Assembly: GCA_052426225.1 (NCBI GenBank)
Contig: JBNJNM010000009.1
Span: 1-64,000 of the forward strand
Length of the DNA: 64,000 bases
Source: Zancudomyces culisetae HAW-14-8
Taxonomy: Eukaryota; Fungi; Kickxellomycota
Direction of reading: 5' to 3'
The position numbers and the translations under genes are program-made. This document shows, piece after piece, positions 6,901 to 33,947 of the stretch (within the stretch, counting starts at the first letter, position 1; every line of letters starts with the position of its first letter). The notes under the pieces were generated by a model. It did not search any database and was not told the DNA's origin. It saw nothing but the letters and a program-made list of their open reading frames with translations.

Positions 6901-7801
6901 AAGATATTGTCTCTGATAGAGGTTCTATCTTCACTTCAAAATTTTGGAATACTATTACCAAAGTATTAAATATAAAATTAAATATGTCAACAGCATACCA
7001 TCCACAAACGGATGGTCAAACGGAACGAGTAAACCAAGTTTTAGAACAGTATATCAGAATTTATTGTAACTACAACCAAACAAACTGGCATGGTTTATTA
7101 GCACTCGCAGAATTTGCATATAATAACTCAGAACACTCAACTACAAAATTTTCACCATTCTACGCTAATACTGGATATCATCCTTCAATATTTCCATCAA
7201 ATATTTTGACTTCACCCAGTATCTCGCCCATAATCACAGATTTAACTCAGAAAATGTCACAAATTTACAAGGAACATATAAAAAATATTAAAAATGTAAA
7301 TGAAAGATATGCTAAAGCATTTGAAAAAAACACACAAGCAGAACCCGAGTATAATATAGGATCAAAAGTGTGGTTAAATAGAAAATAATTAAAACTAACA
7401 GCCCAAATAACAAACTAGATTATACTAAATTAGGTCCATTCACAATAGTTATAAAATTAAGCAAAGTAGCATACGAACTTCAACTTCCTACGACTATGAA
7501 AGTACATTCTGTCTTTCACGTTTCCCTTCTAGAACCAGTAACTAACAACACTATTGAAGGCCGAATTCAGGAAGCTCCATTACCGGTACTAGTTGATGGA
7601 ATATCAGAATACAAAGTCGAACAAATATTAGACAGTCGTATTAAATATAATAAACTACAATATCTAGTGGACTGGAAAGGGTACGACGCAAGCGAAAGAA
7701 CTAGGAAACCAGCCGAACATCTAACAAATTCAAAAGAACTTGTGGAAAAGTACCATAATGAAAACCCGAATAAACCAATGTCGCTCAGAGATCGACACTA
7801 A
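3931..7801 (+). pseudogene. pol: pol of element A copy 1 (PR-RT-RH-IN-chromodomain, fragmented)
   Basis: [52 protein letters not shown] spread over broken ORFs. Confidence 0.92.
4161..4245 (+). repeat. 12-bp tandem repeat (CTGAACTTAAAC, encoding PELK-like units) at the pol N-terminus; related decayed copy at ~9770-9940
   Basis: Visible tandem units. Confidence 0.85.
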
Positions 7802-7813
7802 GAGAGGGAATAC

Positions 7814-8146
7814 TGTCATAAACTAATATATACAGTTTCAATTTAAATCAACAAACATTATCAAACATGATTTGGATGAATCAGCAATATGATTTTAAAG
7901 ATGTTTAATATTGAACCTAGCACAAAATACAACTTTACTTTAAATAGTTCATTAATTTTAACTACTTTCTATTTATGCAACATTATAGTCTTTAATATTA
8001 AATTTATATAATACAAACAAAAAGTTTAAATAGCATACATTATTCCTTCAGAAAAACTTATCTGACAACAATTGTCAACAATAAATATATTTTATAGTAG
8101 TACTTAATAATCACCAAATTATATCAATATATACAAGTTCATGACA
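7814..8146 (+). repeat. Element A shared middle LTR
   Basis: Preceded by PPT AAGAGAGGGAA and followed by the same PBS/leader as the first LTR. Confidence 0.93.
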
Positions 8147-8646
8147 GTTTGTCAGATCAATATATATTAACTTCTACTATCATGTCAGAGAATAATTACA
8201 AAGACCTTGATGCACTAGTAACAATGACTATAAGTCATTTTAATGAATTACATATGATGGCAACTGTCACGACTTGACACTAAGTACTATATGTTTACTT
8301 GGCTATGACTTAATTAATAAAATACTATGAGATGAAAAGTATGTTATTGCTAAAGTTTCCTAAAGCAATAAAATCCTTGTCCTTATATAGTTTTACAAGA
8401 GATAATAATACTTTTAAAACATACTTAAAACTATACTTAACTATAACTTTAAATTAAATATATTAACTGTCAACTCCATTTAACATATAATAATATGGGG
8501 TAAAACCAAATTAATAAAAATTATTAATTCATCTCCATAATTTATAATTTATGGAGTAAGAATTAAAGCTGAGAAAACGTTAATAAATTTAACATTTGCT
8601 ATATTAAATATGTTATTAAAAATAGCAATAACAACATGAATGGATC

Positions 8647-9521
8647 ATGACAGCAACCCAACTAGACGATCTTCAGCTCCGCTTCAATATGTTAAGAAAT
8701 AATCAAGCAAACGTGTTACCAGTGGCTAGACAACCAAATGTAGCAATTCCTAAATACTTTAGTGGCAATAGAGACCAACTAAGAAACATTGTAGCACAAG
8801 TCCAACTAGTCATACAAGCTCAACCCTCTAGATTTTCAACAGATACTCAGAAAGTCATTTCTGCTTTTACTTTCCTTCGTGGTCCTGCTTTCTCGTGGCT
8901 ACAACCGTTTCTAGAATCTAATATTTATGAACCAATCCTGAAAATTTTTGACAATTTCATAAACGAACTTCATCGTGTTTTCGGAAATCCACACCAATCT
9001 TTGACAGCTGAACGTCAACTCATAAAACTTCGCCAGTTGGGATCCGCAGCCACCTATGCTACTGCATTTTGTCGTATTTGACACATATGTCCTGGAATGT
9101 CGCAGCACTCTGTAGCCAATTTTATGAAGGACTTAAAGAAGAGATTAAGGATTTATTAGCATGTTTTGATAGTCCAAACAACTTATCAGAATTTATTGAC
9201 CTCGCCATAAAAATTGACAACAGACTATTTGAAAGAAACCTTGAAAAAACGTTTCGCCCTCGTCCTATTCACACTCAAAATTTGGATAACTCTACACCAT
9301 CAAGAAACAATTTAATAGTAATAACACAGCCTCGGGTGCAACAAATGGAAATTGACGGAGCTTTATCTCGTCGCCCACCACTCACTCAGACTGAAAAACA
9401 ACGCCGCCGCGACCTTAATCTTTGTCTATACTGTGGTAATCCTGATCATGTCATTTCATCTTGTCCTCGTCGCCCGCAAATAAAGGTACCAAATACTATA
9501 TCTGCAAGCATAATTAAGTAA
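8647..9521 (+). pseudogene. gag: gag of element A copy 2 (frameshifted)
   Basis: Close homolog of 3049-3930; CCHC knuckle. Confidence 0.9.
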
Positions 9522-10853
9522 AACAATTAAGCTCAAGACATTTTCGGACGTAGTCTTGAGCGTATCTAATTATCCTAAACCGTCCACTTCAATCAAAAAT
9601 CTATACCCTTTAAATATTGCCGTTAATGAAACAACCGGAAGTTTATATCAAGCTTAATTAAATCTACTTTACAATTTAACAATAAAATATACATTACAGA
9701 AATCACCAATCTAACACCTGAATTAAATGTAAAAAATACATTCTACTAATCCAACTATAACTCTGAAAATAAACCTGAAACCAAATCTGAAGTCAAACCT
9801 GAACTTAATACTGTACTTAAACCTGAACTTAAACTTGAAATAAAACCTGAAATCAAATCTGAACTTATAATTAAAACTAAACCCGTACTATACTCAAAAC
9901 CTGAACTTAAGCCTGAACTCAAGCCTGTATCTACACCTGACTGCAACTTAAAAATTAATTCCACAATCAATATGAATCTTGACCTGGAACATTTAAATAT
10001 GTCAACAAATAAAGCTTACTCTCACCTTGTAGTTTCAGTAACCCTTCGGGTAAACAATAACCCGATAAAATCCGTTGCCATGATTGATTCGGGTGCAACT
10101 AATTGCTTCATTGATTCTACTTTTGCCAAGACTAATAACATTCTATTAGTTTTAAAAAAATTAGCATTTCCGCTACTAGTAATTGACGGAAGATTAATTT
10201 CGTCATGCTCCATAACACACAATACAATACCACTATAACTTAACACCTATAATCATCACAAAACTATATCCTTTGATGTAACCAAATTGGGATAATACCT
10301 TGTAATTATTGGAATAAACTGTCTGAGAACCCATAATCCACACATAGAGTGGAATTTAGATAAGTTGTATTTCATATCTGAATATTGCTATAATAATTGT
10401 GGTATTCAACAAAATCAATGTTCTACACACACAATAACCTGCACAATAATTCCAGAAAAATCAGAAATAACTCCTATACCATCGGAATATTCTGAATTTT
10501 AAGATGTATTCGATGAATATGCAACTAATAATTAACCACCTCATCGTACATAGGATCATAATATTTCGTTAACACCAGGCTCACAACCACCATTTGGACC
10601 AATTTAATCACTATCTGAAACAGAACTCGCAGCACTTTGTGAATATTTGAAAGAAAATTTAGATAAAGGTTTTTGTCAGGAAACTAATTTATTTAAGTTG
10701 GGAAACTTAATGTTCCCAAGTTAGGATATAAAGGTAATTAAATATGATTAAAAATAAATATTAAAACTTATGGGTAAATAATGCGATTCTGACATTATCC
10801 CCCCTTCAAAGAATATTTTAAATATATAAAAATAATATCTTGGACAAAAATGT

Positions 10854-11120
10854 GAGCTTATAGTCGAGTGGCTAAGGCGTCGAACTTGTATTCTGCAGGA
10901 CCCTGGTTCGATCCTTCGCTGTAAGACCGTAATTGGGAAGTAATTAGCTGTAGAGTGGATGTGATGTTTCACGGGGCCAATGTGCGCGATGACGTCCTTC
11001 GGGACTAGTACCGGACCGTTTCACCTCTCCGACAACTCCTTCGGGATCTCGAGCAGTTAATTCGAATCACGTGATCGTGTGGCCCAAGACGTTAGCGCCC
11101 TCCTAAGTTCATTCTTTTTT
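10854..11120 (+). ncRNA. Putative Pol III transcript: tRNA-like head plus long structured RNA, antisense to element B
   Basis: A-box TAGTCGAGTGG 10861-10871; B-box GGTTCGATCC 10905-10914; TATA-like 10821-10830; two C(UUCG)G hairpins; GGGCCA/TGGCCC stem; T6 at 11115-11120. Confidence 0.6.
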
Positions 11121-11240
11121 ATTTTTTCTTTTATAATTTTTTATGCTTTTTAGTTGTTTTTAGGTTGTTTTTATAGTTTTTTTTTTTTTGATAAGTATTT
11201 AGGTATAATATTGGTTAAATAATAAAATATAATGTTGCTC

Positions 11241-14200
11241 TTATGGTTTGTTGTGATATGTCTTATAGTATTTTTTCAATAGTTGTGGCGCGTTTATGTT
11301 TTCAATCGGCTCCCAGCTTCTTTCACTTATGTCAAAGCCTTTCCAATCAACTAAGTAATATTTTTTACCCCGTACAAGCTTAGAATCCAAAATAGCCTTA
11401 ACTTCATATTCTTTATTTCCATTTATAATTAGGGGTGGAGGAGGACTGTCTATTAATCTGCGGTTACTGCTGGGTTCGATATACGGTTCCAATAATGAGA
11501 CATGAAAAGTGTTATGGATTTTCATTGATGGCGGGAGGTCTAAACGGACAGAAACAGGATTGATGATTTTTGAAATAGTGAGTGGGCCTAGAAGTCTATG
11601 GTCAAGCTTTTTAGAAGGCCTTTGAGTTTTGATATTTTGGCTGGATAGCCAAACCTTGTCACCTAGTTTATACTTTGGATGTTCAGATCGGTTTACATCA
11701 GCATACTTTTTATATTCCTGAGATTTCTTGTTAAGTATGGAAGTGAGGGCAGATTGAAGTTCTTTGAGTTGTTTTATCCTATCAGAAGCGCTGGGGACGT
11801 GAACGTTTTTAGTGATTTGAGGATCAAATCTTGGATGGTAACCATATAGAGCAAAGAAAGGAGAAGTATTAGTGCTGGAGTGGAGAGTGTTGTTATAAGC
11901 AAATTCGGCAATTGGGAGCAGTTCAAACCAATTATCTTGCTGATAGTTGATGAAACAGCGTAGATACTGTTCCAATGTTTGATTCACCCGCTCCGTTTGA
12001 CCGTCTGTCTCTGGATGGAAGGCTGTAGACATTCTAGTATCAACTTTGAGCAGTTTGAATAGTGAACTCCAAAATTTGGACGAGAATTGGGTTCCACGGT
12101 CAGAGATTATGACGTCTGGTAGTCCATGAAGCTTGAATACGTGGGTAAAGAAGGCGGAGGCAGTTTCTTCTGAGGATGGCAGCTTCTTAAGCGGGATGAA
12201 ATGGCTCATTTTAGTGAACCTGTCTACAACTACCATAATAGTAGTGTGCTTGTTGGATGGAGGAAGATCAGTTATGAAATCCATGGTAATAGATTTCCAT
12301 GGGCCTGAAGGAGCGGGTAGCGGAAGTAGTTTACCGTAAACTTTGTGTCTTCTGTCCTTTGATCTATTGCATGTATCACAGGTTTGAACAAATTCTTTAA
12401 TAAATTTGCGCATTCCTGGAAACCAAAAGTCTCGTTCCACGAGCTCCAATGTCTTCTTAGCACCAAAATGGCCGGCTGGGCCACTGTCATGTCTAGAACT
12501 TACGACTTGCGGCTTCATTTTGTCGGGGACGACAACACGGTTTCCAAGCATTACAATCCCATCTTCAACTTCTACTGGCTCGTTAGACTTATGGCTGCTC
12601 TGGTATCTTGCGGCATCCAATAATCCTTGTAGATGGGCTTTGCTGGATTTGGCGATTTCTTGAGCAAAATCACTGTCCACTATGCTGATAATGTCTATGA
12701 AGTGGTCTTCACCTATGATGTTGTTGTTGGCGACCTTATCAGGTGTGTGATTGGGCAAACGAGAAAGAGCGTCAGGTTTGCCTCCTTGAGATCCAGGCCT
12801 GTAGGTTATGATGAAGCTGAATCTACTGAGATCAAGAGACCACCTTGCGTGTCTTCTGTTGAGTGACTTCAGATTTTTAAAGGTCTCCAGATTCTTATGG
12901 TCAGTAAGAATCTTGAACGGGATGGAGGAGCCTTCCAGATGATGTCGCCATTCTTTGAGAGCCTTGATGATTGCCAAAAGTTCCTTGTCATAGATATTAT
13001 AGTTGGATTCGGCAGTGTTGAGTTTGTAAGAGTAGTAGGCACAAGGACGGAGATCACCGTTTTCATCTTCTTGGGACAGAGCAGCCCCAATGGCGTAGTC
13101 TGAGGCGTCAGTTTCCAGAATAAACTGTTTTCCTGGGTCAGGGTATCTGAGAACGGGGGAAGTGGTGAGATCCTGGATAAGAGTATTAAAGGCTTCACCT
13201 GCCTCCTTACTCCAAACGAACGGTGTATCCTTTTTCAGAAGTCTTGTGATTGGCAGGGCTTTCAGCGAAAAGTATGGGATAAACTTTCGGTAGTAATTGG
13301 CAAAACCGAGAAACTTCTGGACCTCCTTGACATTGGTGGGTGGTAGCCATTCCTTTACACACTTGACTTTAGCAGGATCGGTGGCTATTCCATCTGAAGA
13401 CACAACATGGCCTAGAAATTCAACTTCCCTGATATGGAAGTGACATTTTTCGGCGTTACAGTACAGACCATTTTCAAGCAGCTTTTTCAGAACAGATTTC
13501 ACATGATTGATGTGAGTGTCAGTGTCATTGGAAAATATTAAGATGTCGTCAAGGTATGCAATTGCATAGAGATCCAATACATCTCGTAACACATCATTGA
13601 TAAAGTGCTGAAAGGTGGCGGGAGCATTTGTCAAGCCAAATGGCATGACCTGGTACTCAAAGTGGCCATATCTGCACCTAAATGCAGTTTTCCACTCGTC
13701 ACCTTCCTTGATCCGCACCAAGTTGTAGGCACCTTTGAGATCCAATTTTGTAAAGACCTTGGCTGTACGCAGCCGATCGAACGCCTCATCAATCCTAGGT
13801 AATGGGTACCTATTCTTGATGGTAGCTTCGTTCAATCGGCGGTAGTCAACACAAAGGCGCAAGTCTCCAGACTTCTTCTTTACAAACATGATTGGTGCAC
13901 CGGCAGGGGAAACAGAGCGTCTGATGAAGCCATTGGTGAGGTTTTCGCGGATGTAACCTCTTAGAGACTCTAACTCTACTTCAGATAGCGGGTATATTGG
14001 CCCCCAGTATGGGGTGTAACCCTCTTTGGTGTTGACAGGACAGTCATAACGGCGGTGAGGAGGAAGTGAAACGGCAGACTTGGGATTGAACACCTCCTTG
14101 AATTCAGAGTATATTACTGGAAGTTGCGGAAATTCTTCCAAGTACTCTAGTGGGGACTCAGAAACGGCAAAAGTTACAGGATCTGGATCCAAGGAATATT

Positions 14201-15068
14201 CTGGCTCGGGGGTGGTGACTGGGGTATTTTTATGAAATGGCCGGGATCTGACGACTGGTTCTCTTGGCTCAATTTTTTTCAGGATTGCTTTGGGAAGTTC
14301 AGGCCTGAGTGGTGCTTTTGGCACAGGGGTTACTGGACGACGGGGCTCAGGAATTTGCTTGACAACATGGTTATCTACTGGATTCTCAATAGCTGCGGGT
14401 TTGGGCAAACTTTGGGTTTCAGGTTCTGGAGTGACTGATTGGACTGGTGCAGGAACAGGAACAGGAAGAATCTCTTCAATTCTGGCGTATGGATTTGACG
14501 GAGCTGGGCTGGGGAGATCAGGAGACGGAGGCGGTGAAAATCTTTGATTTTCAGTGTTTGAATCGTCCAACTTGACCGATTCGAGCAACTTGGCACTGTG
14601 TGGAAGCAGGGTAGTTGATAATCTATTCAACACCCTTTGGAGGATAGTTGAGTTTGTGGACGTATTCTGACTGGTATTTTGTTCTACTGGATCTGGATCT
14701 GGTTCATCAGGTGACTTGAACACGGCCTGGATGGAGTGGGTATCAACACAATTTGTACTGCAAAATTCAGAGTCAAAGTGGATCTGGAGGTCTGGCCAAG
14801 TTATACTAGGATTATGTTTGCGTAACCAGGGTAATCCAAAAATAATGTCAGCGTGATTGGTTGGAATCGGGATAAGGTCTAGGTGTTCAGAGTGGTTAGG
14901 ACCGGACTTGATATGGGCATTATCAACCTTGACATTTATGCCCCCTGGGTATATCTGGTGACCATCAACACTTTCTAGGACGATGGTTTTTTCAGCTTCT
15001 TTGGTTGGGAGGTTAAGTTTTTCTAATAAATCTTGACGAATAAAGTTGGCTGAAGCACCGGAGTCCAC
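11241..15068 (-). CDS. pol: Pol polyprotein of element B (PR, Pro-rich linker, RT, RNase H, integrase, chromodomain)
   Basis: 1275-aa ORF: DSGA, YLDD, TDASD, HHCC, DFITDL/SDRG/GQTE, YEVKAILD...YLVDWKGF. Confidence 0.97.
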   Translation of the reverse strand: MDSGASANFIRQDLLEKLNLPTKEAEKTIVLESVDGHQIYPGGINVKVDNAHIKSGPNHSEHLDLIPIPTNHADIIFGLPWLRKHNPSITWPDLQIHFDSEFCSTNCVDTHSIQAVFKSPDEPDPDPVEQNTSQNTSTNSTILQRVLNRLSTTLLPHSAKLLESVKLDDSNTENQRFSPPPSPDLPSPAPSNPYARIEEILPVPVPAPVQSVTPEPETQSLPKPAAIENPVDNHVVKQIPEPRRPVTPVPKAPLRPELPKAILKKIEPREPVVRSRPFHKNTPVTTPEPEYSLDPDPVTFAVSESPLEYLEEFPQLPVIYSEFKEVFNPKSAVSLPPHRRYDCPVNTKEGYTPYWGPIYPLSEVELESLRGYIRENLTNGFIRRSVSPAGAPIMFVKKKSGDLRLCVDYRRLNEATIKNRYPLPRIDEAFDRLRTAKVFTKLDLKGAYNLVRIKEGDEWKTAFRCRYGHFEYQVMPFGLTNAPATFQHFINDVLRDVLDLYAIAYLDDILIFSNDTDTHINHVKSVLKKLLENGLYCNAEKCHFHIREVEFLGHVVSSDGIATDPAKVKCVKEWLPPTNVKEVQKFLGFANYYRKFIPYFSLKALPITRLLKKDTPFVWSKEAGEAFNTLIQDLTTSPVLRYPDPGKQFILETDASDYAIGAALSQEDENGDLRPCAYYSYKLNTAESNYNIYDKELLAIIKALKEWRHHLEGSSIPFKILTDHKNLETFKNLKSLNRRHARWSLDLSRFSFIITYRPGSQGGKPDALSRLPNHTPDKVANNNIIGEDHFIDIISIVDSDFAQEIAKSSKAHLQGLLDAARYQSSHKSNEPVEVEDGIVMLGNRVVVPDKMKPQVVSSRHDSGPAGHFGAKKTLELVERDFWFPGMRKFIKEFVQTCDTCNRSKDRRHKVYGKLLPLPAPSGPWKSITMDFITDLPPSNKHTTIMVVVDRFTKMSHFIPLKKLPSSEETASAFFTHVFKLHGLPDVIISDRGTQFSSKFWSSLFKLLKVDTRMSTAFHPETDGQTERVNQTLEQYLRCFINYQQDNWFELLPIAEFAYNNTLHSSTNTSPFFALYGYHPRFDPQITKNVHVPSASDRIKQLKELQSALTSILNKKSQEYKKYADVNRSEHPKYKLGDKVWLSSQNIKTQRPSKKLDHRLLGPLTISKIINPVSVRLDLPPSMKIHNTFHVSLLEPYIEPSSNRRLIDSPPPPLIINGNKEYEVKAILDSKLVRGKKYYLVDWKGFDISERSWEPIENINAPQLLKKYYKTYHNKP

Positions 15069-15169
15069 TAATGCAACAAGTTCGTGTAGATTATTTAAAA
15101 CAACTTTAATATGAAATTTATTACTAGAAATATTAGAATTATTAGCTACGCTCAGGAGTAACTCCCGGA

Positions 15170-16138
15170 CTACATCTGAGCACTGTCTTTTGGCACCCCA
15201 GGTATAGGGGGTCTTGGCCTGCGGAGCGGACAGTTACGGAGAATGTGGTTCGGCTGACCACAGTATAGACAAAGATTATTGGCTAATCTTCTCTGACGTT
15301 CGGCTGTATCTAGCGGTGCTCTTGGACGGGAGGTGACGGCATCAACGTCCATTGGTTCAGGAGCCTGGTGATCTGGGACAGGCATGGCTGGACGGGGGAA
15401 GACCGGTGGAGCCGGAGTACTCCAGTTGCGGAATGGGACGCTTCTCTTGGGCAGGTAGGCACTGCGGGCATTGATTCTGTTCTCAAGCTCAATCACCTGA
15501 TCAATGAGCTGATCCAAGGTGTTTGGTAGCGGTTCAGTGGCAAGGCGCTGGACAAGGCTAGTATCCAATCCGATGTAAAACAGGTGAATTTTGGCTGGCT
15601 CGTTGAATCCACTGAGAGAGGCGAGGTTTCTGAACTCGGTTGCAAATTCCAGGACGGAACGCTGGGACTGGCGGCAACTATGAAGCTGGGTGATAGCTCG
15701 GGCTTGGTGGCCAGGATCTGAGAATCTCTTTTGAAATTCATTCTCAAACCCTTTGAAATCTGAGAGCAACGGTGATTGGGTATCGATAAGGTTATCGAAC
15801 CACAGGGCAGCATGACCGGCAAGGTGAGAACTGATGAACCATATCTTGTTATGGTCACTCTGGAACACGTCTGGTCTGGCCCAGAACTGGCGCTTGATCT
15901 CGGCGGTGAAGGCTCGGAACCTTCCTGATTCTCCTGAGTATTTCTGGATTTCTGGTATTCTGATACCATCAATCCTTGGCTGCGGATTTGGTGCAGGCAA
16001 ATTCTGCAACTGACTGGGGACTTGGGCGGGTGTCTGGGCTTGAGCCTGGGCTTGAGCTTGACTTTCTTGCAAAGCTTGTTGCATAGCTAATTTTGCGATC
16101 TCATCTAATTGGTGGACCATCATTAACTCTTCAACCAA
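15170..16138 (-). CDS. gag: Gag of element B
   Basis: Retrotransposon capsid-like region, EPMDVD, CLYCGQPNHILRNC; true start probably the ATG a few codons in. Confidence 0.95.
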   Translation of the reverse strand: MVEELMMVHQLDEIAKLAMQQALQESQAQAQAQAQTPAQVPSQLQNLPAPNPQPRIDGIRIPEIQKYSGESGRFRAFTAEIKRQFWARPDVFQSDHNKIWFISSHLAGHAALWFDNLIDTQSPLLSDFKGFENEFQKRFSDPGHQARAITQLHSCRQSQRSVLEFATEFRNLASLSGFNEPAKIHLFYIGLDTSLVQRLATEPLPNTLDQLIDQVIELENRINARSAYLPKRSVPFRNWSTPAPPVFPRPAMPVPDHQAPEPMDVDAVTSRPRAPLDTAERQRRLANNLCLYCGQPNHILRNCPLRRPRPPIPGVPKDSAQM

Positions 16139-19046
16139 TAATTAGAAGTTTCCCAAAATGTCAGGAAACTAATTTATTTAAGTTGGGAAACTTAATGTTC
16201 CCAAGTTAGGATTCAAAGGTAATTAAATATGATTAAAAATAAATATTAAAACTTATGGGTAAATAATGCGATTCTGACAGTTTTATTCATTCTTCATCAT
16301 CTCCAGCTGGCTCTCCTATACTTTTTGTATAAAGAAAGTTGGATATTTAAGATTATGCGTTGATATTAGAGGATTAAATAACTTGACAATTAAATCAGGT
16401 ATCTTTACCTTTAATCGGAGAGTTACTCGACAGATTCAGTCAAGCGAAAATATTTTCTATAATCGATTTAAGAGGCGCTAATAATTTAATATGAATAGCT
16501 AAGGGAGAAAAATGGAAAAGTGCATTTTGTACGAGTTACGGTCACTATATATATTGAGTATGCCATTCGGACTCTGCAATGCTCCAGCATCGTTTCAATG
16601 TTTCATGAATGATGTATTATCTGACTGCTTAGATAGTTTTGCAGTAGTATATTTATATGATATACTGGTATATAGTACAATTAGAATACCATATTAAGCA
16701 TGTAAAAGAGATATTAAGAAGACTCCGAAATAATTCACTATATGCTAAACTGGAAAAATGATGAATTCACAAAACAGATGTCGAATTTTTGGGATATATT
16801 GTTTCCGATAAAGGGGTAAGTATGGATATAACAAAGACAATAGCTGTAAGTGCATGGCCTGCACCAACCTCAATAATAGTAATTCAAACGTTCCTTGGTT
16901 TTGCAAATTTAAATAGAAAATTTATATTGAATTATTCAAAGATTGTGACACCTATAACAAAATTGTTACGAAATAATGAATAATGGAACTGGACACTGAA
17001 GCACAAAACACTTGCGATCAATTAAAAAAACATTTACAACTGCACCTATTTTAAAATATTTTGATCCGATTAAATCAATTACTATCGAAACTGATGCATC
17101 AGACTTCGCAATTGGAGGAGTTATATCACAACGCAACGATAATATCAATTTACATCATATAGATATTATTCCAGAAAGTTACAACCTGCTGAAATCAACT
17201 ATGAAATTTACGATAAAGAAATGTTAGCCATAATTGAGGCTTTTAAAGAATGGAGATCATAACTCGAAGGAGCATTACATCAAATTACGGTTTTAACTGA
17301 TCATAAAAAACTAGAATATTTTACTACCACTAAAACTTTGAATAGGCGTCAAGCACGATGGGCAGAATTATTTGGAAATTATAATTTCATTATTAAATAC
17401 GCAACTGGTTCATCTAACGGGAACCCCGATGCTTTGTCCCGACGCCTGGATCATTTTCCTCAGGAGCGGGATGACGCTCTACGTAATAAGTAAAGTTTGC
17501 TATAGCCAGAACAATTGATTATTGCAGCAGTAGAACTAATGGTTGCTAATAAATTTGATAAAACTATATTAATTAGTAGCTACAAAAAAGATATAAAAGT
17601 TAATTCCATTATTTCTAAATTGCAACATATTAACAATTTATCTAACTCTGAATATCCAAACTTAAAGGATTATAAATACGACAATGAAATACTTACTTTT
17701 AAAGGTAAAACATACATTCCAGATAACATTGAAATCAAACTACTACAACTCAACCAGTTTCACGATTCGCCTATTGCTGGACACTTCGGACATTCTAAAA
17801 CCTTTGAACTGATTTCCAGATACTATTATTGGCCAAAAATGAGTAAAATGATTAAAAATTATATTAACTCATGCGATCAATGTTGCAGATGTAAACAGAT
17901 AAGACACAAACAATATGGTCAACTACAACCTTTACAGATTCCAGAAAAACCGTGGGAATCAATTTCTATGGATTTTATTGTTGGGTTACCATTGTCACAA
18001 ACTTACGATTCAGTATTGGTTATTGTAGATAGACAAACAAAAATGGCGCATTTTATTCCAACAAATAACAATATCAACGCACAACAAACAGCAAAACTTT
18101 TTATCAATAACATATTTAAACTTCACGGACTGCCAAAAGATATAGTCTCTGATAGAGGTTCTATCTTCACTTATAAATTTTGGAATACTATTACCAAAGT
18201 ATTAAATATAAAATTAAATATGTCAACAGCATACCATCCACAAACATATGGTCAAACGGAACGAGTAAACCAAGTTTTAGAACAGTATATCAGGATTTAT
18301 CGTAACTACAACCAAACAAACTGGCATGGTTTATTAGCACTCGCAGAATTTGTAAATAATAACTCATAACACTCAACTACAAAATTTGCACCATTCTACG
18401 CTATACTGGATATCATCCTACAATATTTCGATCAAATATTTTGACTTCACCCAGTAACTCGCCCATAATCACAGATTTAACTCAGAAAATGTCACAAATT
18501 TCAAGGAACTTATAAAAATTATTAAAAATGCAAATGAAAGATACCTAAAGCTTATGATAAAAACAGACAATCAGAACCCGAGTTTAATATAGGATCAAAA
18601 GTGTGGTTAAATAGAAAATAATAAAAACTAACAGACCAAATAACATACTAGATTATACTAAATTAGGTCCATTCACAATAGTTATATAATTAAGCAAAGT
18701 AGCATACGAACTTCAACTTCCTACGACTATGAAAGTACATCCTGTCTTTCACGATTCCCTTCTAGAAATAGTAACTAACAACACTATTGAAGACCGAATT
18801 CATGAAACTCCATTACCGGTACTAGTTGATGGAATATCAGAATACAAAGTCAAACAAATATTAGACAGTCGTATTAAATATAATAAACTACAATATCTAG
18901 TGGACTGGAAAGGGTACGACGCAAGCGAAAAAACTTGGTAACCAGCCGAACATCTAACAAATACAAAAGAACTTGTGGAAAAGTACCATAATAAAAACCC
19001 GAATAAACCAATGTCGCTCAGAGATCGACACTAAGAGAGGGAATAC

Positions 19047-19377
19047 TGTCATAAACTAATATTAATCAGTTTTAATTTAAATCAACAAACAACATCAAAC
19101 ATGATTTGGATGAATCAGAAATATGTTTTTAAACATGTTTAATATCATAACTAGCACAAAACACAACACTACTTTAAATAGTTCATTAATTTAACAACTT
19201 TCTATTTATGCAATATTTTAGTCTTTATTAATAGTTATATATTTTACAATCAAAAAGTTTATATAGCATTCTATATTCCTTCAGAAAAACTTATCGACAA
19301 CAAGTGTCACAATTAATATATAGTTTATAGTAGTAATTAATAATTACCAAATTAACCAAAATAAAAAGTTCATGACA
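19047..19377 (+). repeat. Element A 3' LTR
   Basis: PPT before, TSD CTGAT after. Confidence 0.93.
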
Positions 19378-20395
19378 CTGATAAACAAAAAAAGTAAAAT
19401 ACTTTATACAAAATTCACTTTAGATATAAAATCATTGCTTCTAATACTTCACTTGCTGATACAATTACAAAATTTGAAGCTGACCTCCTCAATATCTTTT
19501 ATATTTATCCAAATTTTTAAGATTAATTTCAACGCAAGAAATCTAAAAAATCAGAAAATTGCTGAAGCTAAGAAGGCTATAAAGAAACAAGAACTAGCAC
19601 AAAACTCGATGACCGTAGATACACAAGCTAGTTTCAAAGGACATAAAAAGTATATTATGGCAACAAATTGCGTCGAAACCATCAACCAATATAACCAAAA
19701 TATCACTAATATACTACAGTAGAAAAATCACCAAAGGGTAGCTAATAAACTACAAATCCAACAAAAGACATTCAATTAACAATAAATAAAGAGTATTTAA
19801 CAACACAAATCTATACAAAAGTTCTCATGGCGCCAAAGAAGGAATCACAACATAATATTCAAAAAGAAAGTAAAACACAGTTTTTACTTCAAATATCATT
19901 ACCATCAACAATTACTAAGTAACTTTACCAAAAATACAACAAAGTCAACTAAAAATTATTCAGCTATATTTACTTTTGTTCACAACATGACTTCCAAATC
20001 TGATAGTAAACAGCTTATATTAAACAATTGAATTAAACACATACCTCAATTACTTAACAATGAAGTTGTTATGGTTTTAAATTATATGAAACCTTTGTCT
20101 CCACAGGACAATGTTTCATATAATTTATCAATTATAACCATAACATTTACCGACCTCCACATTATTAATTTAAATGTTTTAGTTATGTTTTAGTTATGTT
20201 TTAAATTAGTATAATTTTAAAATTATCGTCCCATCATGAAAAGTATATAAGCTATACGATTATCATGATGGAACGATAAGTTTTACAACGAGTTTAGTTT
20301 CGTTTAGTTTATTCACTTATAGTCTAGTTTACTAATAAATATATTTTATCCAAGTCCAGACCTTGACAGTTTGTAAAACTTCTCTTCAAGATACC

Positions 20396-21196
20396 ATGTC
20401 AAGTATATTCACCGAGTCAAGCATTAAACTTCCAGACGCTCCACGTTTTAGTGGGAAACCTTCAGAATTCCAAGCCTTCATGTCAAGCATTGAGCTTTAT
20501 TTTTGGGCACGTGGAGATCTATTCAAGACTGAAAAAAACAAAATAGTATTTATTGGCGCACACTTAACAGGACCCACAGCCATATGGTTTAACTCGCTCA
20601 TCGAGGAAAAATCAACAGACCTCGCAAACTATGCTCAGTTTTTGGAATTATTTAAGAAGAATTTTTCAGACCCCAGCCAAGAAATAAGAGCTAGAGGAGA
20701 ATTACGTAGATGTAAACAAGGGCCAAGAAGCGTGGCTAACTATGCTGCCGAATTCAGGACTTCAGCCAGAATCAGCGGATTTGACCAAGCTGCACTAATT
20801 GACCAGTTCTTAAGAGGACTAAATGACAATGTCATGAACTTTCTTATGATGAATGATATGCCTATAAAACTGGAGGACACTATAGCTCTAGCTGTAAAAG
20901 TTGATAACCGCCTTTCCAATCGACGAATGTTAAGAAGCGCTCCGGGTTATTATAATTCATCATTTCAGAGACCAACAACTAAAGCAGAACCTGTTCAAAG
21001 TACTATGCATGATGACCTTCCACCTGGTGAACCTATGGAAATAGACGCACTAGTTACCAAACAGCGACCACATCTCTCTCAAGAAGAAAAGGACAGACGC
21101 AGAGCTCTTGGGTTATGCATGTATTGTGGAAATCAAGGACATATAGCTATTCGCTGTCCAAACAAAACTCAGTCGGGAAAAGTCCACACTCAGTAA
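20396..21196 (+). CDS. gag: Gag of element C
   Basis: First ATG MSSIFTE; PRFSGKP, EPMEID, CMYCGNQGHIAIRC. Confidence 0.93.
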   Translation: MSSIFTESSIKLPDAPRFSGKPSEFQAFMSSIELYFWARGDLFKTEKNKIVFIGAHLTGPTAIWFNSLIEEKSTDLANYAQFLELFKKNFSDPSQEIRARGELRRCKQGPRSVANYAAEFRTSARISGFDQAALIDQFLRGLNDNVMNFLMMNDMPIKLEDTIALAVKVDNRLSNRRMLRSAPGYYNSSFQRPTTKAEPVQSTMHDDLPPGEPMEIDALVTKQRPHLSQEEKDRRRALGLCMYCGNQGHIAIRCPNKTQSGKVHTQ

Positions 21197-24100
21197 TACC
21201 TGGGAAGTTATTACTGGGTTCTCGTTACCTATTTAGCGTTAATAATCTTACAGACAGTTTAAGGAAATTCACTTTTCCAATAAAGTTATCTTATAACAAC
21301 ATTACGGTCCCAATAATGGCACTAATTGACTCCGGTGCCACAGGAAACTTTATTCAGGAGAAGTTAGCTAAAAGATTAAACCTTCCCAGAAAACCAATAT
21401 CACAACACATCGAGTTAGAAACCATCGACGGTAATAAAATAACTGGATCACCCATAACTGAAACTTGTATTGGGTTTACACTAACATTATCTAATAACCA
21501 CTGTGAAGAAATATCATTACTACCTATAAACTCAATTGATATAGCCATAGTCTTGGGATTACCTTGGTTACGTAAACATAATCCACAAATACACTGGATT
21601 AATCATTCATTATCTTTCAACTCCAATTACTGTGTACACAACTGTATTAGCAATCCAAAGAGAATAGATGCTGTATTCAGAGCCCCAATTCATGAACATT
21701 CTGATATCGAGGCAGATAGACCTAGTAGCCCAGATATTTCTTCAGATGAAGAATTCTATGATGCCCCGTCTGAGCCCATAAATAAAACCCAAACCGAAAG
21801 CAATCACCCAGTACCATTTTCCATCAATACGGATAACGTCAACACATCCAACTCCGCAGATCCTATACATATTCCACCACAATATCATGATTTACAATCG
21901 GTATTTGATCCAGTCGAAGCAGACAGATTACCACCAAACAGAAGTTATGATTGCCCAATAGAATTAACGTCAAACATATTACCGAAAATGGGACCCATAT
22001 ACCCATTGTCGGTTGTCGAGTCACAAGCACTGTACGATTACATCCAAGAAAATTTAAAAAAGGGTTTTATAGTTAAATCAAAGTCACAAATAGGAGCACC
22101 AATAATGTTTGTAGATAAAAAGGACGGTGGCCTACGCCCTTGTGTTGATTATCGAAAGATAAACGAAATAACAGCAAAAAATATATACCCTTTACCGAGA
22201 ATAGATGAATCGTTCGATCATCTAAGTAAGGCAAAATACTTCACCAAATTAGACTTAAGAGGAGCATATAACCTAGTACGAATCAGACCTGGTGATGAAT
22301 GGAAGACTGCTTTCAGATGCAGATACGGTTTATATGAATACAGGGTGATGCCATTCGGGCTCACTAATGCCCCAGCCACATTCCAGACGTTTATGAATGA
22401 TATACTCAGAGAAGCACTGGATATATATGCTATTGCATACCTTGACGACATACTTATATTTTCATCTAGTCTAGAGGAACACTACAGCCATGTAAGAACA
22501 ATACTAAAAATACTCAAGGAAAACAAACTGTATGCAAAACTAGAAAAATGTAAATTCCACCAAACATCGATCGATTTCTTAGGCCACGTAATAAGCCAAA
22601 AAGGTATAACATCTGATCCCCAAAAAGTAGCCAAGTTGATCGACTGGGAAATACCAAAAACAATTAAAGATATACAAGTATTCTTAGGTTTTGTAAACTA
22701 TTACAGAAAATTTATCCCAAATATGGCAAACATCGCGTTACCCTTAACAAATTTACTAAAAAAGGATATAGCATTTAAATGGAACAACGAAGAACAGAAT
22801 TCGTTTACTACACTCATTAGACATCTAGCTGGATTACCTTTACTCTCTTATCCTAACCATGACAAACAATATATCGTGGAGACTGACGCTTCGGATTACG
22901 CTATGGGAGCAATATTATCGCAGTATGATGAAGATAATGAATTAAGACCTGTTGCATACTACTCTAGAAAGTTCACCCCAGCGGAAATCAATTACGACAT
23001 CTACGATAAGGAAATGCTTGCCATTGTTACAGCAATGAAAGAATGGAGACATTACCTCGAAGGTACACAGCAAACTACAATTGTATATACGGATCACAAA
23101 AATCTAGAACACTTTAAGAATGCTCAAACCTTAAACCGACGGCACGCAAGATGGTCACTTACGCTATCACGATATAACTTCCTTATTACATACAGACCGG
23201 GAACTGAGGGTGGCAAACCTGACGCACTGTCTAGAAGATCTGAATACCAACAAGGTCCTCCACTACCTAAAAACATCTTTCGCAATACCAACTTCCTTTA
23301 CGCAATTATCCAGCCACATAACCCTATATTATCTAAAATCCTAAACGAGTCTAAGAAAGACAAATATGCAATTAAGTTACTGAAAAAAATAAATTTACCG
23401 ACCAAATCAAATAATGATAAACAACCGATATATCGAATTGACAATGGAATAATAAAGTACAAAGAAAGAATATATTTACCAGAAAGCACTAGGCTGGATG
23501 TTATCAAGATGCACCATGATTCAACAACTGCTGGACACTATGGAATTAAGAAAACTTTAGACCTGTTACGTCGCACATTTTGGTTCCCTGATATGAATAA
23601 CTATGTAAGGAAATATATAGAAACATGCGATATCTGTAAAAGAACAAAAATACCTCGACACAGAAAGTTTGGATTACTAACACCTTTACCAGTTCCATCA
23701 GGTCCGTGGAAATCAGTTACAATGGATTTTATTGTAGAGTTACCACCATCCAACGGGTATACAACTATACTAGTAATGGTAGACCGGTTTACAAAGATGG
23801 CTAAATTCGTGCCTATCAAGAAACTTCCCACTGCGCAACAAACTGCTGACATCTTCCTGAAACATATTTTCTCTAACTATGGATTACCAGAAGAAATAAT
23901 CACTGACCGAGGTAGCCAATTTACTTCAAAGTTTTGGCAAAGATTACTAAAACTACTGAAAATAAAATCTAAACTCTCTTCAGCATTCCATCCAGAAACT
24001 GACGGTCAGTCAGAAAGAACAAACCAAACTCTCGAACAATACCTTAGAGCTTTTATCTCTTATCAACAAGATAATTGGGACACGCTATTACCTATGGCAG

Positions 24101-24762
24101 AGTTTTCGTATAATAATTCTAAACACTCATCTACAAAGTCATCGCCGTTTTACAGTCTCATGGGATATCACCCGAACTTCACTACAATCAAATTATCAAC
24201 TACACAAGTACCCGAAGCAGATGAACACATAAATAACTTAAGAAAAATAAATACATTATTAAAAACTAATTTATATAATTCTAACAAAAAATCTAAGTTA
24301 TACGCGGATAGGAAAAGAACAAGTGGACCTGAAATCAAGCCAAACGATCTAGTGTGGTTAAATGCAAAGAATATAAAAACTGACAGACCATCAAAGAAGT
24401 TAGACCACCAATTTCTTGGACCATTCAAAGTATTAAAAAGGATAGGAAAAGTAGCTTATAAACTAGAATTACCAGAGTCGATGAAGATTCATCCTACATT
24501 TCATATTTCGCTATTGGAACCATACAAACCTAATGAAATTCCAGGACGAGTCAAGGAACCACCTCCAGCAATCACAGTCGAAGGACAAAATGAATACGAA
24601 GTAGCAAAAATACTCGATTCAAGAAAACGATACAACAAAATCGAGTACTTGGTTGATTGGAAAGGACATAGCGCAGCTGAACGATCTTGGGAACCTAGTG
24701 AGAATTTAAACTGTGACCGCCTACTTAATTTATACCACAAGAATCATCCTTACAAACCATAA
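21115..24762 (+). CDS. pol: Pol polyprotein of element C (in -1 frame relative to gag)
   Basis: 1215-aa ORF: LIDSGA, YLDD, ETDASD, integrase DDE, chromodomain YEVAKILD...VDWKG. Confidence 0.97.
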   Translation: MHVLWKSRTYSYSLSKQNSVGKSPHSVIPGKLLLGSRYLFSVNNLTDSLRKFTFPIKLSYNNITVPIMALIDSGATGNFIQEKLAKRLNLPRKPISQHIELETIDGNKITGSPITETCIGFTLTLSNNHCEEISLLPINSIDIAIVLGLPWLRKHNPQIHWINHSLSFNSNYCVHNCISNPKRIDAVFRAPIHEHSDIEADRPSSPDISSDEEFYDAPSEPINKTQTESNHPVPFSINTDNVNTSNSADPIHIPPQYHDLQSVFDPVEADRLPPNRSYDCPIELTSNILPKMGPIYPLSVVESQALYDYIQENLKKGFIVKSKSQIGAPIMFVDKKDGGLRPCVDYRKINEITAKNIYPLPRIDESFDHLSKAKYFTKLDLRGAYNLVRIRPGDEWKTAFRCRYGLYEYRVMPFGLTNAPATFQTFMNDILREALDIYAIAYLDDILIFSSSLEEHYSHVRTILKILKENKLYAKLEKCKFHQTSIDFLGHVISQKGITSDPQKVAKLIDWEIPKTIKDIQVFLGFVNYYRKFIPNMANIALPLTNLLKKDIAFKWNNEEQNSFTTLIRHLAGLPLLSYPNHDKQYIVETDASDYAMGAILSQYDEDNELRPVAYYSRKFTPAEINYDIYDKEMLAIVTAMKEWRHYLEGTQQTTIVYTDHKNLEHFKNAQTLNRRHARWSLTLSRYNFLITYRPGTEGGKPDALSRRSEYQQGPPLPKNIFRNTNFLYAIIQPHNPILSKILNESKKDKYAIKLLKKINLPTKSNNDKQPIYRIDNGIIKYKERIYLPESTRLDVIKMHHDSTTAGHYGIKKTLDLLRRTFWFPDMNNYVRKYIETCDICKRTKIPRHRKFGLLTPLPVPSGPWKSVTMDFIVELPPSNGYTTILVMVDRFTKMAKFVPIKKLPTAQQTADIFLKHIFSNYGLPEEIITDRGSQFTSKFWQRLLKLLKIKSKLSSAFHPETDGQSERTNQTLEQYLRAFISYQQDNWDTLLPMAEFSYNNSKHSSTKSSPFYSLMGYHPNFTTIKLSTTQVPEADEHINNLRKINTLLKTNLYNSNKKSKLYADRKRTSGPEIKPNDLVWLNAKNIKTDRPSKKLDHQFLGPFKVLKRIGKVAYKLELPESMKIHPTFHISLLEPYKPNEIPGRVKEPPPAITVEGQNEYEVAKILDSRKRYNKIEYLVDWKGHSAAERSWEPSENLNCDRLLNLYHKNHPYKP
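21175..21217 (+). promoter_or_regulatory. Candidate -1 ribosomal frameshift signal of element C
   Basis: G_GGA_AAA heptamer at 21175-21181, then a CAGTAATA/TATTACTG stem 9 nt downstream; frames fit a -1 shift. Confidence 0.65.
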
Positions 24763-24942
24763 AAAAAAAAAAAAAAAAAAAAATAAGATGGACCCCCGAG
24801 GAATCGAACCTCGGCCATCATTATGATTGGCAAAATTGAATCAATATCCTGCATCATTACCACCTAAAGGATTCAGCAATGACTCGAACTCGCATTCACC
24901 AGACCACAATCATGAGACATACCGACTATGCCATTGAGGCCC
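24761..24942 (-). ncRNA. Putative Pol III transcript with two tRNA-like modules, antisense to element C
   Basis: On minus: A-box TGGCATAGTCGG (24933-24922), B-boxes GAGTTCGAGTC (24891-24881) and GGTTCGATTCC (24810-24800), perfect T-arm CGAGG-TTCGATT-CCTCG, acceptor-like 3' GGGGTCCA, then a T23 run. Confidence 0.6.
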
Positions 24943-26217
24943 GAGGCCTATACAGTTATAAATACTCAAGTCTAAAGGGGGGGGTAGTGTTATGGTTTTA
25001 AATTATATGAAACCTTTGTCTCCACAGGACAATGTTTCATATAATTTATCAATTATAACCATAACATTTACCGACCTCCACATTATTAATTTAAATGTTT
25101 TAGTTATGTTTTAGTTATGTTTTAAATTAGTATAATTTTAAAATTATCGTCCCATCATGAAAAGTATATAAGCTATACGATTATCATGATGGAACGATAA
25201 GTTTTACAACGAGTTTAGTTTCGTTTAGTTTATTCACTTATAGTCTAGTTTACTAATAAATATATTTTATCCAAGTCCAGACCTTGACAGAAGTACATAA
25301 CATTGACCTTTCTTTTTATAATACCACTCTTCTTTTATCCAAAAGTTATATTATTTTAACAACGTTGATGACAAATAAATATGAAATATTTTTGAAATGC
25401 TAGAGTAAAAATTATTATATTCTATCACTCCTAAACTCACAGAGAAAACTAAATTATTATACCTAAAGTTATCAATTATATCAACCATGACGGAATTATT
25501 AACATAATAAATTTAATAATCACATAGGCCCTATAATCATGTATACACAAGATTATCACAAACTAGGATTCAAAATATTAAACAACATTAACAATATTGT
25601 ACAATTCGTAATAACTCAGATGACATCAATGATCAAGTATTTAATCATACATATAATAATCTAATTAACTACTTCACTACAAATTATTATTCAAAATCAA
25701 ATAAGCCTACTTCATAAAGACAATAATATCCAATTACCGAATTTCTACATAAAATTAATAATCCTTAAAACGCCAATTGAGTTTCGACCAATTACATCAG
25801 CAACCAATTGGCTAACAACAAAGCTATCTAAAACAATATCAATATATTAATTGAACAAGAAAACCCAGTAATCTAAGAAATTACCTAGAATAGATCAAAC
25901 AACTTGAAAACAAAGTTATTCCCAATAACTACATCATAGGATCACTCGATTTGTAACTTTAATTCAATTGTTCGAATCAAAACTTTGACAGTACTATTCT
26001 TAAATTGACCAAATCTCAATAACTAACTGATGCCACAATTTACATTTGTGAATCAACTATTTTATGTATCATAAAAATGTATTTAAATATATTATTGTTA
26101 TCACAATGGGCACCAATGCAGAATAAATGAACTATACTATACCTTCAAATATTGATAATATTTTAAAATATTTTGCCTTCATTAATACAGATATATTAAC
26201 GATAAATTCTAGAAAAC

Positions 26218-26908
26218 TGTTATAAACAATGAGCTGCTTATAACTTTGAACCGTGGATTAGTTATGCTTGATTAATATTTATTAGAAGAAGTAATGATTA
26301 TAAAATATATATTATTAGATGAGTTAAAAAATTTATATATTACTCTGATGTAACCCAACGGAATTTCGAAGGGTTTATAAAATTTCTATCTATTATTTAG
26401 AATATGAAGAAATACTAAAGACAATATATTTAGTAATAAAAATTTATTATGTATAATCTAATTAGATTAGGTATCTACTTTTCGTTAAACTTATCATTTT
26501 TATTGTTGATTTTACATTGATTTTGTTTATAAACTTTAACATTGATTTTGTTTATAAATTTTAACATTGATTTTGTATATCTATTTTAGCATAGATTTTA
26601 CTTAATGATTTTGGCATAGATTTTATTTATCAATTTAATCATGGATTTTGTTTATCCAGTTTTATTCATGGATTTTGTCTATCCAGTTTTACCATGGTTT
26701 ATTATAAATATAATAATTGTAAAATTTCTTGAATTTATTTTGTAAATTTTCTATAAATAAATTCTGATATTTGATGGTGTATTTTTTTAACATGATTTCA
26801 TGTCGGATGACATTTTCGAATGCCGGAAATGAATTAATATAATAGGTTAAATTTTTCATAAGCCAAAATGTAACTATAATTATTAACGGGAATTGGCCAT
26901 TTCTAACA
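26218..26908 (-). mobile_element. Old diverged solo LTR of the element D family, inside the Penelope-like RT
   Basis: Starts TGTTATAAACAATGAGCTGCTTATAAC and ends CCATTTCTAACA like D LTRs; flanks AAAAC/GTAAC are an imperfect TSD. Confidence 0.85.
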
Positions 26909-33916: not shown

Positions 33917-33947
33917 TCCATGGACGGTGAGGGTTCATGAAAATCCT

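Follow-up and report, generated by a model that had tools for sequence, protein, structure and literature searches.

RNAs of the adenovirus VA and EBER type are about 160 nt long, contain internal A and B boxes, possess a stem that joins the 5' and 3' ends and finish with an oligo-U end. They belong to DNA viruses of animals, and for VA RNA a decoy function has been established. Transcription units for RNA polymerase III (Pol III) are also already known from retroviruses and from the LTRs of tiny non-autonomous retrotransposons. For instance, bovine leukemia virus (BLV) and simian foamy virus carry Pol III miRNA cassettes (PMC3993851; PMC12498455), and the first of these papers reads the cassettes as a way to avoid cleavage of the genomic RNA (PMC3993851). 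Moreover, the Helenus, Cassandra and Ajax elements (TRIMp3), which also occur in fungi, are LTR retrotransposons with tRNA-derived sequence and conserved A and B boxes (Kojima 2024; PMC10886601). They are non-autonomous TRIMs of 311-1263 bp, whose tRNA-derived part lies inside the LTRs and has been proposed to drive their own transcription (PMC10886601). In Neurospora, milR-4 is made by Pol III and RNase Z from a tRNA precursor (PMC3547838), and Retand and Grande contain antisense ORFs between pol and the 3' LTR (PMC11963269). Aimed full-text searches of open-access papers listed no description of an autonomous chromovirus that contains such a unit in self-contained, antisense and tRNA-shaped form.

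The DNA analysed here (64,000 nt, hereafter the window) is a chromosome end of probably fungal origin. It contains two chromoviruses, B and C. In each of them, as the initial annotation had noted, an antisense unit with A and B boxes and a T-run is located between the pol stop codon and the polypurine tract (PPT); the two boxes are spaced as in a tRNA gene. Both units share the layout of VA and EBER-type RNAs, which consists of internal A and B boxes, a 5'-3' terminal stem and an oligo-T end, with no relation in sequence (no match to such RNAs in Rfam). As in TRIMp3, A and B boxes are kept in tRNA-derived sequence. However, compared with TRIMp3, B and C are autonomous and longer than 5 kb, and their units are internal (between pol and PPT, outside the LTRs), antisense and self-terminating. 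BLV and foamy virus are likewise reverse-transcribing elements that carry, in their 3' part, internal type-2 Pol III units with own terminators. These are retroviruses with short pre-miRNA hairpins, the expression of which has been demonstrated, and the foamy virus units lie in the LTR, whereas the units studied here are predicted, tRNA-shaped, part of a retrotransposon and opposite to the genomic strand. In the fungal milR-4 and the MHV68 TMERs, a tRNA moiety also provides the Pol III promoter and the processing sites for a linked structured RNA (PMC3547838). However, in the systems described there the hairpin lies downstream of the tRNA and is freed by RNase Z, whereas the hairpin of C is internal to the unit, within the anticodon arm, and in B an acceptor-type stem encloses the body; moreover, milR-4 is a host gene. 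In Retand and Grande, too, this interval of a Ty3/gypsy element holds antisense cargo, but the cargo is protein-coding, the intervals span several kb and the carriers are plant non-chromoviruses; the word tRNA does not appear in PMC11963269.

Two sister chromoviruses with different LTRs

B and C are complete Ty3/gypsy chromoviruses with intact gag and pol genes, PR-RT-RNaseH-IN-SH3-chromodomain in order, LTRs, a PPT and a TSD. Element B (10674..16279, minus strand; 5.6 kb) is nested in an A-type element and flanked by a 5-bp TSD. Its 3' LTR (10674..10794, minus; 121 bp, TG...CA) is 98.3% alike to the 5' LTR at 16159-16279, and the PPT, as read from the sequence, occupies 10799..10807 (minus). 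The pol and gag genes of B extend over 11241..15233 and 15170..16141 (both minus), and its primer site (16146..16156, minus) is complementary to the element's own LTR over 11 nt, which occurred in 3/1000 shuffles. Element C (20067..25289, plus strand; 5.2 kb) also has a 5-bp TSD, and its two LTRs (20067-20368 and 24988-25289, plus; 302 bp, TG...CA) are 100% identical. It comprises a primer site (20371..20381, plus; 11 nt complementary to its own LTR, 4/1000 shuffles), gag (20339..21196, plus), pol (21031..24762, plus) and a PPT (24974..24984, plus). Both elements are found in a subtelomeric repeat nest, and the 64-kb window is full of repeats.

Complementarity of the primer site to the element's LTR, the criterion for self-priming stated in PMC2864245, places B and C among the Tf1-type elements. 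Since the primer site of each element matches its own LTR, the idea that the cassette is a source of the RT primer was given up. It is also hardly credible that the units are cis-acting tRNA-binding sites, whose complement in the genomic RNA would anneal a primer tRNA and aid strand transfer like the 3' half-site of Ty3, an element with a bipartite primer site whose segments lie in both UTRs (PMC5371799). The position near the 3' LTR fits this role, but the own-LTR primer sites are of the tRNA-independent type and the units contain long non-tRNA inserts and terminators.

The LTRs of B and C differ, as had been stated, to the point that they are unalignable (549/1000 shuffles score equally well). 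By contrast, the elements were wrongly called unrelated, since both fall, together with one further protein (P0022), into a single clade (support 98-99, 53% identity). D falls outside the clade that joins B and C in the protein trees, and B and C fail to group in a short C-terminal tree. As B and C represent sister lineages, a single old capture is as possible as convergence. The absence of a cassette from elements A and D also held, with a gap between pol and PPT of about 20 nt in the A copies and about 45 nt in D.

Promoter boxes, stems and folding of the units

A strict A+B pattern was composed after viewing the sequence. It has exactly two matches in the window, one in each cassette; over 200 block shuffles the mean was 0.005, and no shuffle contained two. 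Independently of this pattern, a profile HMM built from 19 phage tRNAs gave eight matches in the window, of which the three best were the head of B (E 1.5e-4), the T arm of C (E 0.11) and the head of C (E 0.85). Moreover, both units contain two T-loop-like words. The TATA-like words reported earlier do exist, at a distance of 31 nt before the predicted +1 in B and 22 nt in C, but carry little weight in AT-rich DNA. Similarly, the description as GC-rich and structured applies relative to the surroundings only (GC 52% in B and 47% in C versus 25% in the LTRs). In the comparison with Rfam, neither a tRNA nor another family reached gathering level, and RF00005 was not among the matches listed up to E 5-10. 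ARAGORN without introns found no match in the window, and the 13 matches of a relaxed run (-ps85) were swamped by false calls. Overall, the sequence supports the view that the units are tRNA-derived, antisense and Pol III-type, and carried by the element.

The B cassette (10854..11111, plus strand, antisense to the element) is predicted to specify a Pol III RNA of 258 nt. The A box (10861..10871, plus; D-arm region) is followed at tRNA spacing by the B box (10905..10914, plus), and the profile match covers 10861-10916. A second, weak T-loop or B-box-like word is present in the body (11056..11072, plus; 79/5000 shuffles), and the T6 terminator (11115..11120, plus) opens a T-rich tract that runs to the pol stop. 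The first 7 nt (10854-10860) pair 7/7 with 11104-11110, which precede a discriminator-like A, thereby forming an acceptor-like stem just before the terminator. This pairing of the +1 as defined by the A box with the bases before an independently defined terminator was matched in 743/100000 shuffles, and the 5'-3' duplex was equalled in 38/2000 shuffles and by 27/5509 28-mers of the element. However, neither the whole unit (z -0.22) nor the body (z 0.03 to 0.92) folds better than shuffles. The body has no hairpin that beats shuffles, and thus the TMER/milR-4 layout of tRNA, hairpin and terminator is absent from B. As a tRNA, B is degenerate: the T stem retains 3/5 pairs, the terminal T-arm-like word scores -2.9, and detection by ARAGORN and Rfam fails. 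Ribozyme, SRP and snoRNA identities considered for the body lack Rfam support.

The C cassette (24789..24942, minus strand; 154 nt) forms a single predicted cloverleaf, which is the only ARAGORN match in the window at the default threshold with introns allowed (101.28). It comprises a 7-bp acceptor stem (24942-24936 with 24796-24790), a 6-bp D arm, an A box (24922..24933, minus), a long interrupted hairpin where the anticodon arm would be (24815..24915, minus), a perfect terminal T arm with the B box (24797..24813, minus; the best T-arm score in the window) and a discriminator A. The anticodon arm holds an insert of about 75 nt; the hairpin contains, besides the first B-box-like word (24890-24881), an internal T4, which could end Pol III transcription early. 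An interpretation as two tandem tRNAs was replaced by this one cloverleaf with a long arm. ARAGORN gave a match in 0/60 shuffles of the window, 0/3000 of the interval and 18/3000 with the boxes held fixed; as matches were few in the latter, the stems of C exceed what the promoter words alone provide. However, ARAGORN accepts C only when a 74-nt intron is assumed at a non-standard position, and Rfam lists no tRNA match for C; its spacers are atypical (3-nt linker, 8-9-nt variable region), and the anticodon is ambiguous, with His, Gly, Asp, Lys and Ala readings scoring alike. The whole-unit folding z is -1.18 or -2.15, depending on the boundaries. The predicted sizes, 258 nt for B and 154 nt plus trailer for C, agree closely with the antisense RNAs of about 270 and 160 nt that had been anticipated. 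It is likely that each unit makes its own small structured RNA, as predicted from these features.

When 76 nt after the GTG triplet are removed from C in silico, a tRNA-His-like cloverleaf remains, whose score of 110.4 falls inside the range of 24 real phage tRNAs (106.5-125.7), although other cuts score equally. This result counts in favour of a reading in which the units are harmless captured passengers. A Pol III transcript of the host, in the case of C perhaps a pre-tRNA with an intron, would have entered the 3' UTR by copying in the course of reverse transcription. The oligo-U end of the transcript could, for instance, anneal to an A-run after pol and prime DNA synthesis, which would yield exactly the antisense orientation with the T-run facing pol. 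Indeed, the T23 terminator of C (24761..24783, minus) overlaps the pol stop codon, the terminator being an A-run on the coding strand. The passenger would persist because the gap between pol and PPT is the sole spot where a compact element tolerates extra DNA. The degeneracy of B as a tRNA and the similarity of the two heads, which does not exceed that of unrelated tRNAs (16/32 non-invariant positions alike, a value reached by 18/83 unrelated pairs), fit this route as well. The head comparison therefore gives no evidence beyond chance for a common origin and supports neither common descent nor long retention. Nevertheless, we regard captured passengers, which the initial annotation had named only as a refutation, as the main and a serious rival but as less likely than not: the only two A+B units in 64 kb of repeat-filled DNA both reside in sister intact elements, plain decay would not build an acceptor-type stem that closes over an insert of about 190 nt at the terminator of B, and the spacers of C are unlike what a recently copied standard tRNA gene would show.

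The tDNA and TFIIIC sites are known to have barrier activity. The boxes could thus act as DNA, binding TFIIIC with or without Pol III and keeping the 3' end or LTR open in the heterochromatin in which the chromodomain integrase places the element; the RNA would be a by-product. The boxes are the best-kept part, two B-box-like words are present per unit, and the carriers are chromoviruses in a subtelomeric repeat nest. However, a barrier needs neither an acceptor stem, a cloverleaf and a terminator nor a single orientation, and the promoter in the 5' LTR, which would need protection, is about 4.5-5 kb away from the unit. The end-to-end acceptor-type stems in both units favour an RNA product over a pure DNA barrier, which we consider improbable. 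A full-text search of open-access papers listed none on a TFIIIC/tDNA barrier from a retrotransposon-borne unit.

Other copies and relatives

A contig from another public run (X1) extends over 10923-11097 with 2 differences from the B cassette, and in a run of another study (X3) one contig joins the 3' part of the cassette to the end of pol. Thus, the B cassette is not unique to the copy studied here, although these contigs cover parts of it, runs X2 and X4 contributed no contig, and the bin with the B head (10836-10916) is uncovered in all runs, such gaps carrying no weight as evidence. The B unit is present in other copies or strains, whereas C was seen as a single copy, whose intact cloverleaf would be just as expected after a recent capture. 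The divergence of X1 amounts to 2/175 sites in the cassette versus 16/386 third positions in pol, a non-significant indication of constraint on B (p 0.07).

These contigs also bear on one-off insertions of tRNA-SINEs into the B and C copies. The tRNA head and unrelated body of B are SINE-like, but the B unit recurs in two other runs, is linked to pol in one of them, and shows no loose ends among the matches listed at its borders. The flanking TSD named beforehand as the mark of such an insertion was absent, as no direct repeat of at least 6 nt was found once two-letter repeats were excluded, although an old TSD may have decayed. Moreover, the tail is T-rich instead of A-rich on the transcribed strand and the window contains no further copy of the units, which makes SINE insertions very unlikely.

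Relatives were represented by 103 loci, 96 of which were examined; L007, L089, L096 and L100-L103 were dropped because the match or contig stopped before passing the end of pol. None of the 62 relatives with a PPT call (41 with an interval of at least 100 nt) has an A+B unit, which, like the lack of units in A and D, is in line with captured passengers; together with the grouping of B and C apart from D, it also counts in favour of an RNA gene carried by these two elements. One tolerant A+B match in L082 disappeared under a stricter pattern. Antisense T-arm scores of at least 9 were noted in L038, L039, L054, L085 and L091, where the full invariant bases or the A box were absent by inspection; the background was 20 matches of at least 10 in 223 kb. 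Among metagenome relatives, 80 of 590 matches were kept, from 5 of 64 parts, and no locus groups with B or C, so that the survey covers more distant relatives of the two. Searching phage DNA with the units gave chance-level matches only, viral contigs lacked an 18-nt body word, and the first viral scan was blank. Targets of either unit were not found in the window or in 104 loci; the best match (19 nt, 89%, E 2.3) lies in the LTR of D.

A candidate RNA gene and its meaning

We tentatively favour, at just short of an even chance, the reading that the B and C units are element-borne, non-decoding, tRNA-capped Pol III RNA genes resembling those for VA RNA. TFIIIC and Pol III would read the unit from the internal boxes through to the T-run, and the acceptor stem may open the RNA ends to trimming and protection by RNase P, RNase Z and La, as in tRNAs. 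The payload would be the insert, a long hairpin in C and the body of about 190 nt in B, and the products would be structured, non-decoding RNAs of about 155 nt (C) and 260 nt (B). The most probable role of such an RNA would be that of a VA-RNA-like decoy or a Dicer substrate against host RNA silencing; this decoy role, which the initial annotation had put forward beside insulation and antisense control, is doubtful and is the step in which we place the least confidence.

In both units, folding is more stable on the Pol III strand than on the genomic one (B, -80.9 versus -65.8 kcal/mol; C, -53.4 versus -31.4 kcal/mol). The likely reason for the antisense placement is that tRNA-processing nucleases would cut a genomic RNA with this fold, whereas the opposite strand folds much worse. 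Against this, G-U pairing makes a difference between the strands expected in any structured RNA that is captured, whether or not it has a function. A more far-reaching version, which we judge quite unlikely as a whole, would be that the lineage has kept a Pol III tRNA-scaffold gene since before the split of B and C, antisense to shield the genomic RNA, that this gene blunts fungal RNAi and that it recurs across fungal Ty3/gypsy elements.

If the units are passengers, they document a way in which Pol III transcripts are captured, and they will inflate tRNA gene counts. If they are transcribed and under selection, LTR retrotransposons would, like viruses, possess non-coding accessory genes, and C would amount to a naturally occurring tRNA scaffold whose anticodon arm holds a payload. 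Elements that target heterochromatin would then have a testable route for staying active under RNAi. Finally, if the lineage has indeed kept the gene, it would represent an RNA-based counter-defence gene of a retrotransposon against fungal silencing.

Elements B and C within a retroelement nest

The window opens with telomeric hexamer repeats (1-1950), among which a variant hexamer takes over near 1810-1940, and the remainder is a retroelement nest of about 30% GC. Two decayed A-type chromoviruses are arranged in tandem (2210-8146 and 7814-19377) with one LTR common to both, and the second is the host site of the B insertion. Element B (10674-16279, minus strand) has 121-bp LTRs that are 98.3% alike, while element C (20067-25289, plus strand) has identical 302-bp LTRs. 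Both have a 5-bp TSD and encode gag and PR-RT-RH-IN-SH3-chromodomain. A decayed D-type LTR piece (73%) is located at 26218-26689 between C and D. Element D (28860-35958, minus strand) contains a third LTR copy between gag and pol (33065-33918, 95-96% to the terminal LTRs) and a single in-frame stop in pol (31853-31855). Furthermore, two DIRS-type elements of opposite orientation are 71% alike; the one at 40877-45400 is bounded by inverted ends of 279 bp (99%) and contains three long overlapping ORFs, and the one at 47467-50851 matches a Dam-type methyltransferase domain. The best named matches of the neighbouring DIRS-type protein are from Calcarisporiella and Rhizopus, and Microbotryum and Batrachochytrium are among the named matches of the B pol; the DNA thus probably belongs to an early-diverging fungus.

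The initial annotation had treated B and C as unrelated, which is wrong. Their pol proteins are 53% identical. A FastTree analysis of 161 rows (161 of 182 proteins were long enough) united B, C and one other protein, P0022, with a support of 99, albeit with a long-branch warning. A mixture-model tree of 28 rows, free of this warning but with an odd composition of C and P0022, recovered the same clade (98) and B with C (92), and placed D elsewhere. The B and C grouping was not recovered in a 250-column C-terminal tree. Thus, B and C are deep sister lineages. Moreover, the primer sites of B and C have 11 nt complementary to their own LTRs (3 and 4 of 1000 shuffles; 430/1000 for D), which is the self-priming pattern. 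Thus, the cassettes are not required as primers.

Promoter boxes and anatomy of the units

A strict A+B box pattern matched the window twice, at 10905 (+) and 24890 (-), with a mean of 0.005 matches in 200 shuffles. Both matches are antisense to their element and lie between the pol stop and the PPT. Since the pattern was composed post hoc, after sequence inspection, independent models were made from phage tRNAs. The top three of eight profile HMM matches were the B head (E 1.5e-4), the C T arm (0.11) and the C head (0.85), and a T-arm matrix placed C, C and B first in the window. Thus, pattern, HMM and matrix all uphold the antisense boxes previously proposed for B and C, and these boxes are real. 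The A copies and D, also held to be without a cassette, indeed have short pol-PPT intervals in which no unit was found. TATA-like words are present near both units, but amid AT-rich DNA, in which such words mean little.

The C unit (24942 to 24789, minus strand) folds as one cloverleaf with a 7-bp acceptor stem, a 6-bp D arm, a perfect T arm and the discriminator A, and an interrupted hairpin of about 100 nt occupies the position of the anticodon arm. A 5-nt trailer is followed by T23, which overlaps the pol stop, and an internal T4 could be an early termination point. With introns permitted, the unit is the sole default ARAGORN match in the window (101.28; shuffled windows 0/60, shuffled intervals 0/3000, boxes fixed 18/3000). 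A clean tRNA is ruled out by atypical spacers, the absence of a tRNA match in an Rfam search of the unit and an ambiguous reading (in silico cuts gave His, Gly, Asp, Lys or Ala with similar scores).

In B, the tRNA head (10854 to ~10930, plus strand) has kept the invariant bases and spacing, but only 3/5 T-stem pairs, and precedes a body of about 180 nt that does not fold better than shuffles. Positions +1 to +7, as defined by the A box, pair fully with seven bases that are followed by a single A, the 3-nt trailer and then T6 (743/100000 shuffles; duplex test 38/2000). B also contains a second T-loop-like word (79/5000 shuffles). Both units share the 3' layout of acceptor-type stem, A, short trailer and T-run, and contain two T-loop-like words each; in either unit, the Pol III strand folds better than the opposite one. 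Their likeness of 16/32 is reached by 18 of 83 unrelated control tRNA pairs. The units are thus no closer in sequence than unrelated tRNAs, and common descent is a mere possibility.

Occurrence in other copies and relatives

A contig from the public sequencing run X1 spans 10923-11097 of the B cassette with 2 differences, and the X1 contigs of the B pol carry 18 differences among those listed, of which 15 are synonymous (cassette versus pol third positions 2/175 versus 16/386, p 0.07). In X3, a run from another study, one contig covers 11047-11106 and 11191-11268, thereby joining the B cassette to pol. These contigs could represent other B copies or alleles of the B insertion in another strain. 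One-off SINE insertions with TSDs had been named as a finding that would refute the proposed Pol III system. No TSD was found flanking either unit, and parts of the B cassette recur in X1 and X3, whereas the C unit is known from a single copy in the window. A SINE insertion is therefore among the less likely origins and quite improbable.

Among the relatives, 96 of 103 fetched loci were examined and a PPT was called in 62. An A+B unit was present in the pol-PPT interval of 0/62, and intron-tolerant ARAGORN matched 0/96. As none of the examined loci groups with B or C, the negative is limited to chromoviruses generally: the unit is not general to them, and absence from the B/C clade is not implied. 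Four related autonomous chromoviruses carry worn, weak antisense tRNA-like pieces (E 0.12-3.4; L010 4040-4140, L011 2610-2700, L012 4215-4305, L031 1090-1170) within the 3' LTR start, not ahead of the PPT. One study notes that many Repbase LTRs contain tRNA-like pieces (PMC10886601). Long pol-to-LTR intervals with putative antisense coding, as judged by eye, occur in L087 (5960-6640) and downstream of pol in L030, L070 and L085. Sixteen contigs labelled as bacterial or archaeal genomes (L088-L103) match eukaryotic chromovirus pol and are most likely binning contamination.

A putative Pol III RNA

The closed ends, discriminator, trailer and terminator exceed promoter words and matter for an RNA; therefore, an RNA product is favoured. 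We tentatively propose, at somewhat below even chances, that Pol III transcribes the units into non-decoding RNAs whose tRNA-like ends enclose a payload. If instead the units are passengers, captured when an oligo-U end primed on an A-run, strand and position are explained with no need for function; we consider this origin less probable, though the main rival. A TFIIIC barrier is less likely still, and a Ty3-like tRNA-binding site (PMC5371799) is the least probable reading. If the units indeed yield RNA, the antisense placement likely spares the genomic RNA a tRNA fold. For foamy viruses, Pol III transcripts are described as an answer to a similar problem, Drosha cleavage (PMC3993851). By analogy, the most likely use of the RNA would be that of a decoy or substrate of the silencing machinery. 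VA RNA is an analogue for such a role. A second analogue is the tRNA-linked milR-4 of Neurospora (PMC3547838).

No autonomous chromovirus with a tRNA-shaped unit that is both internal and antisense is described in the open-access literature searched, with subscription papers and Repbase notes outside this scope, or in the available text of PMC10886601, PMC2864245, PMC3993851, PMC3547838, PMC11963269, PMC5371799 and PMC12498455. The cassette is a real feature of B and C. Retroelements with a Pol III unit are known, and the B and C units, whose function is putative, are an internal and antisense form of such a unit within autonomous chromoviruses.
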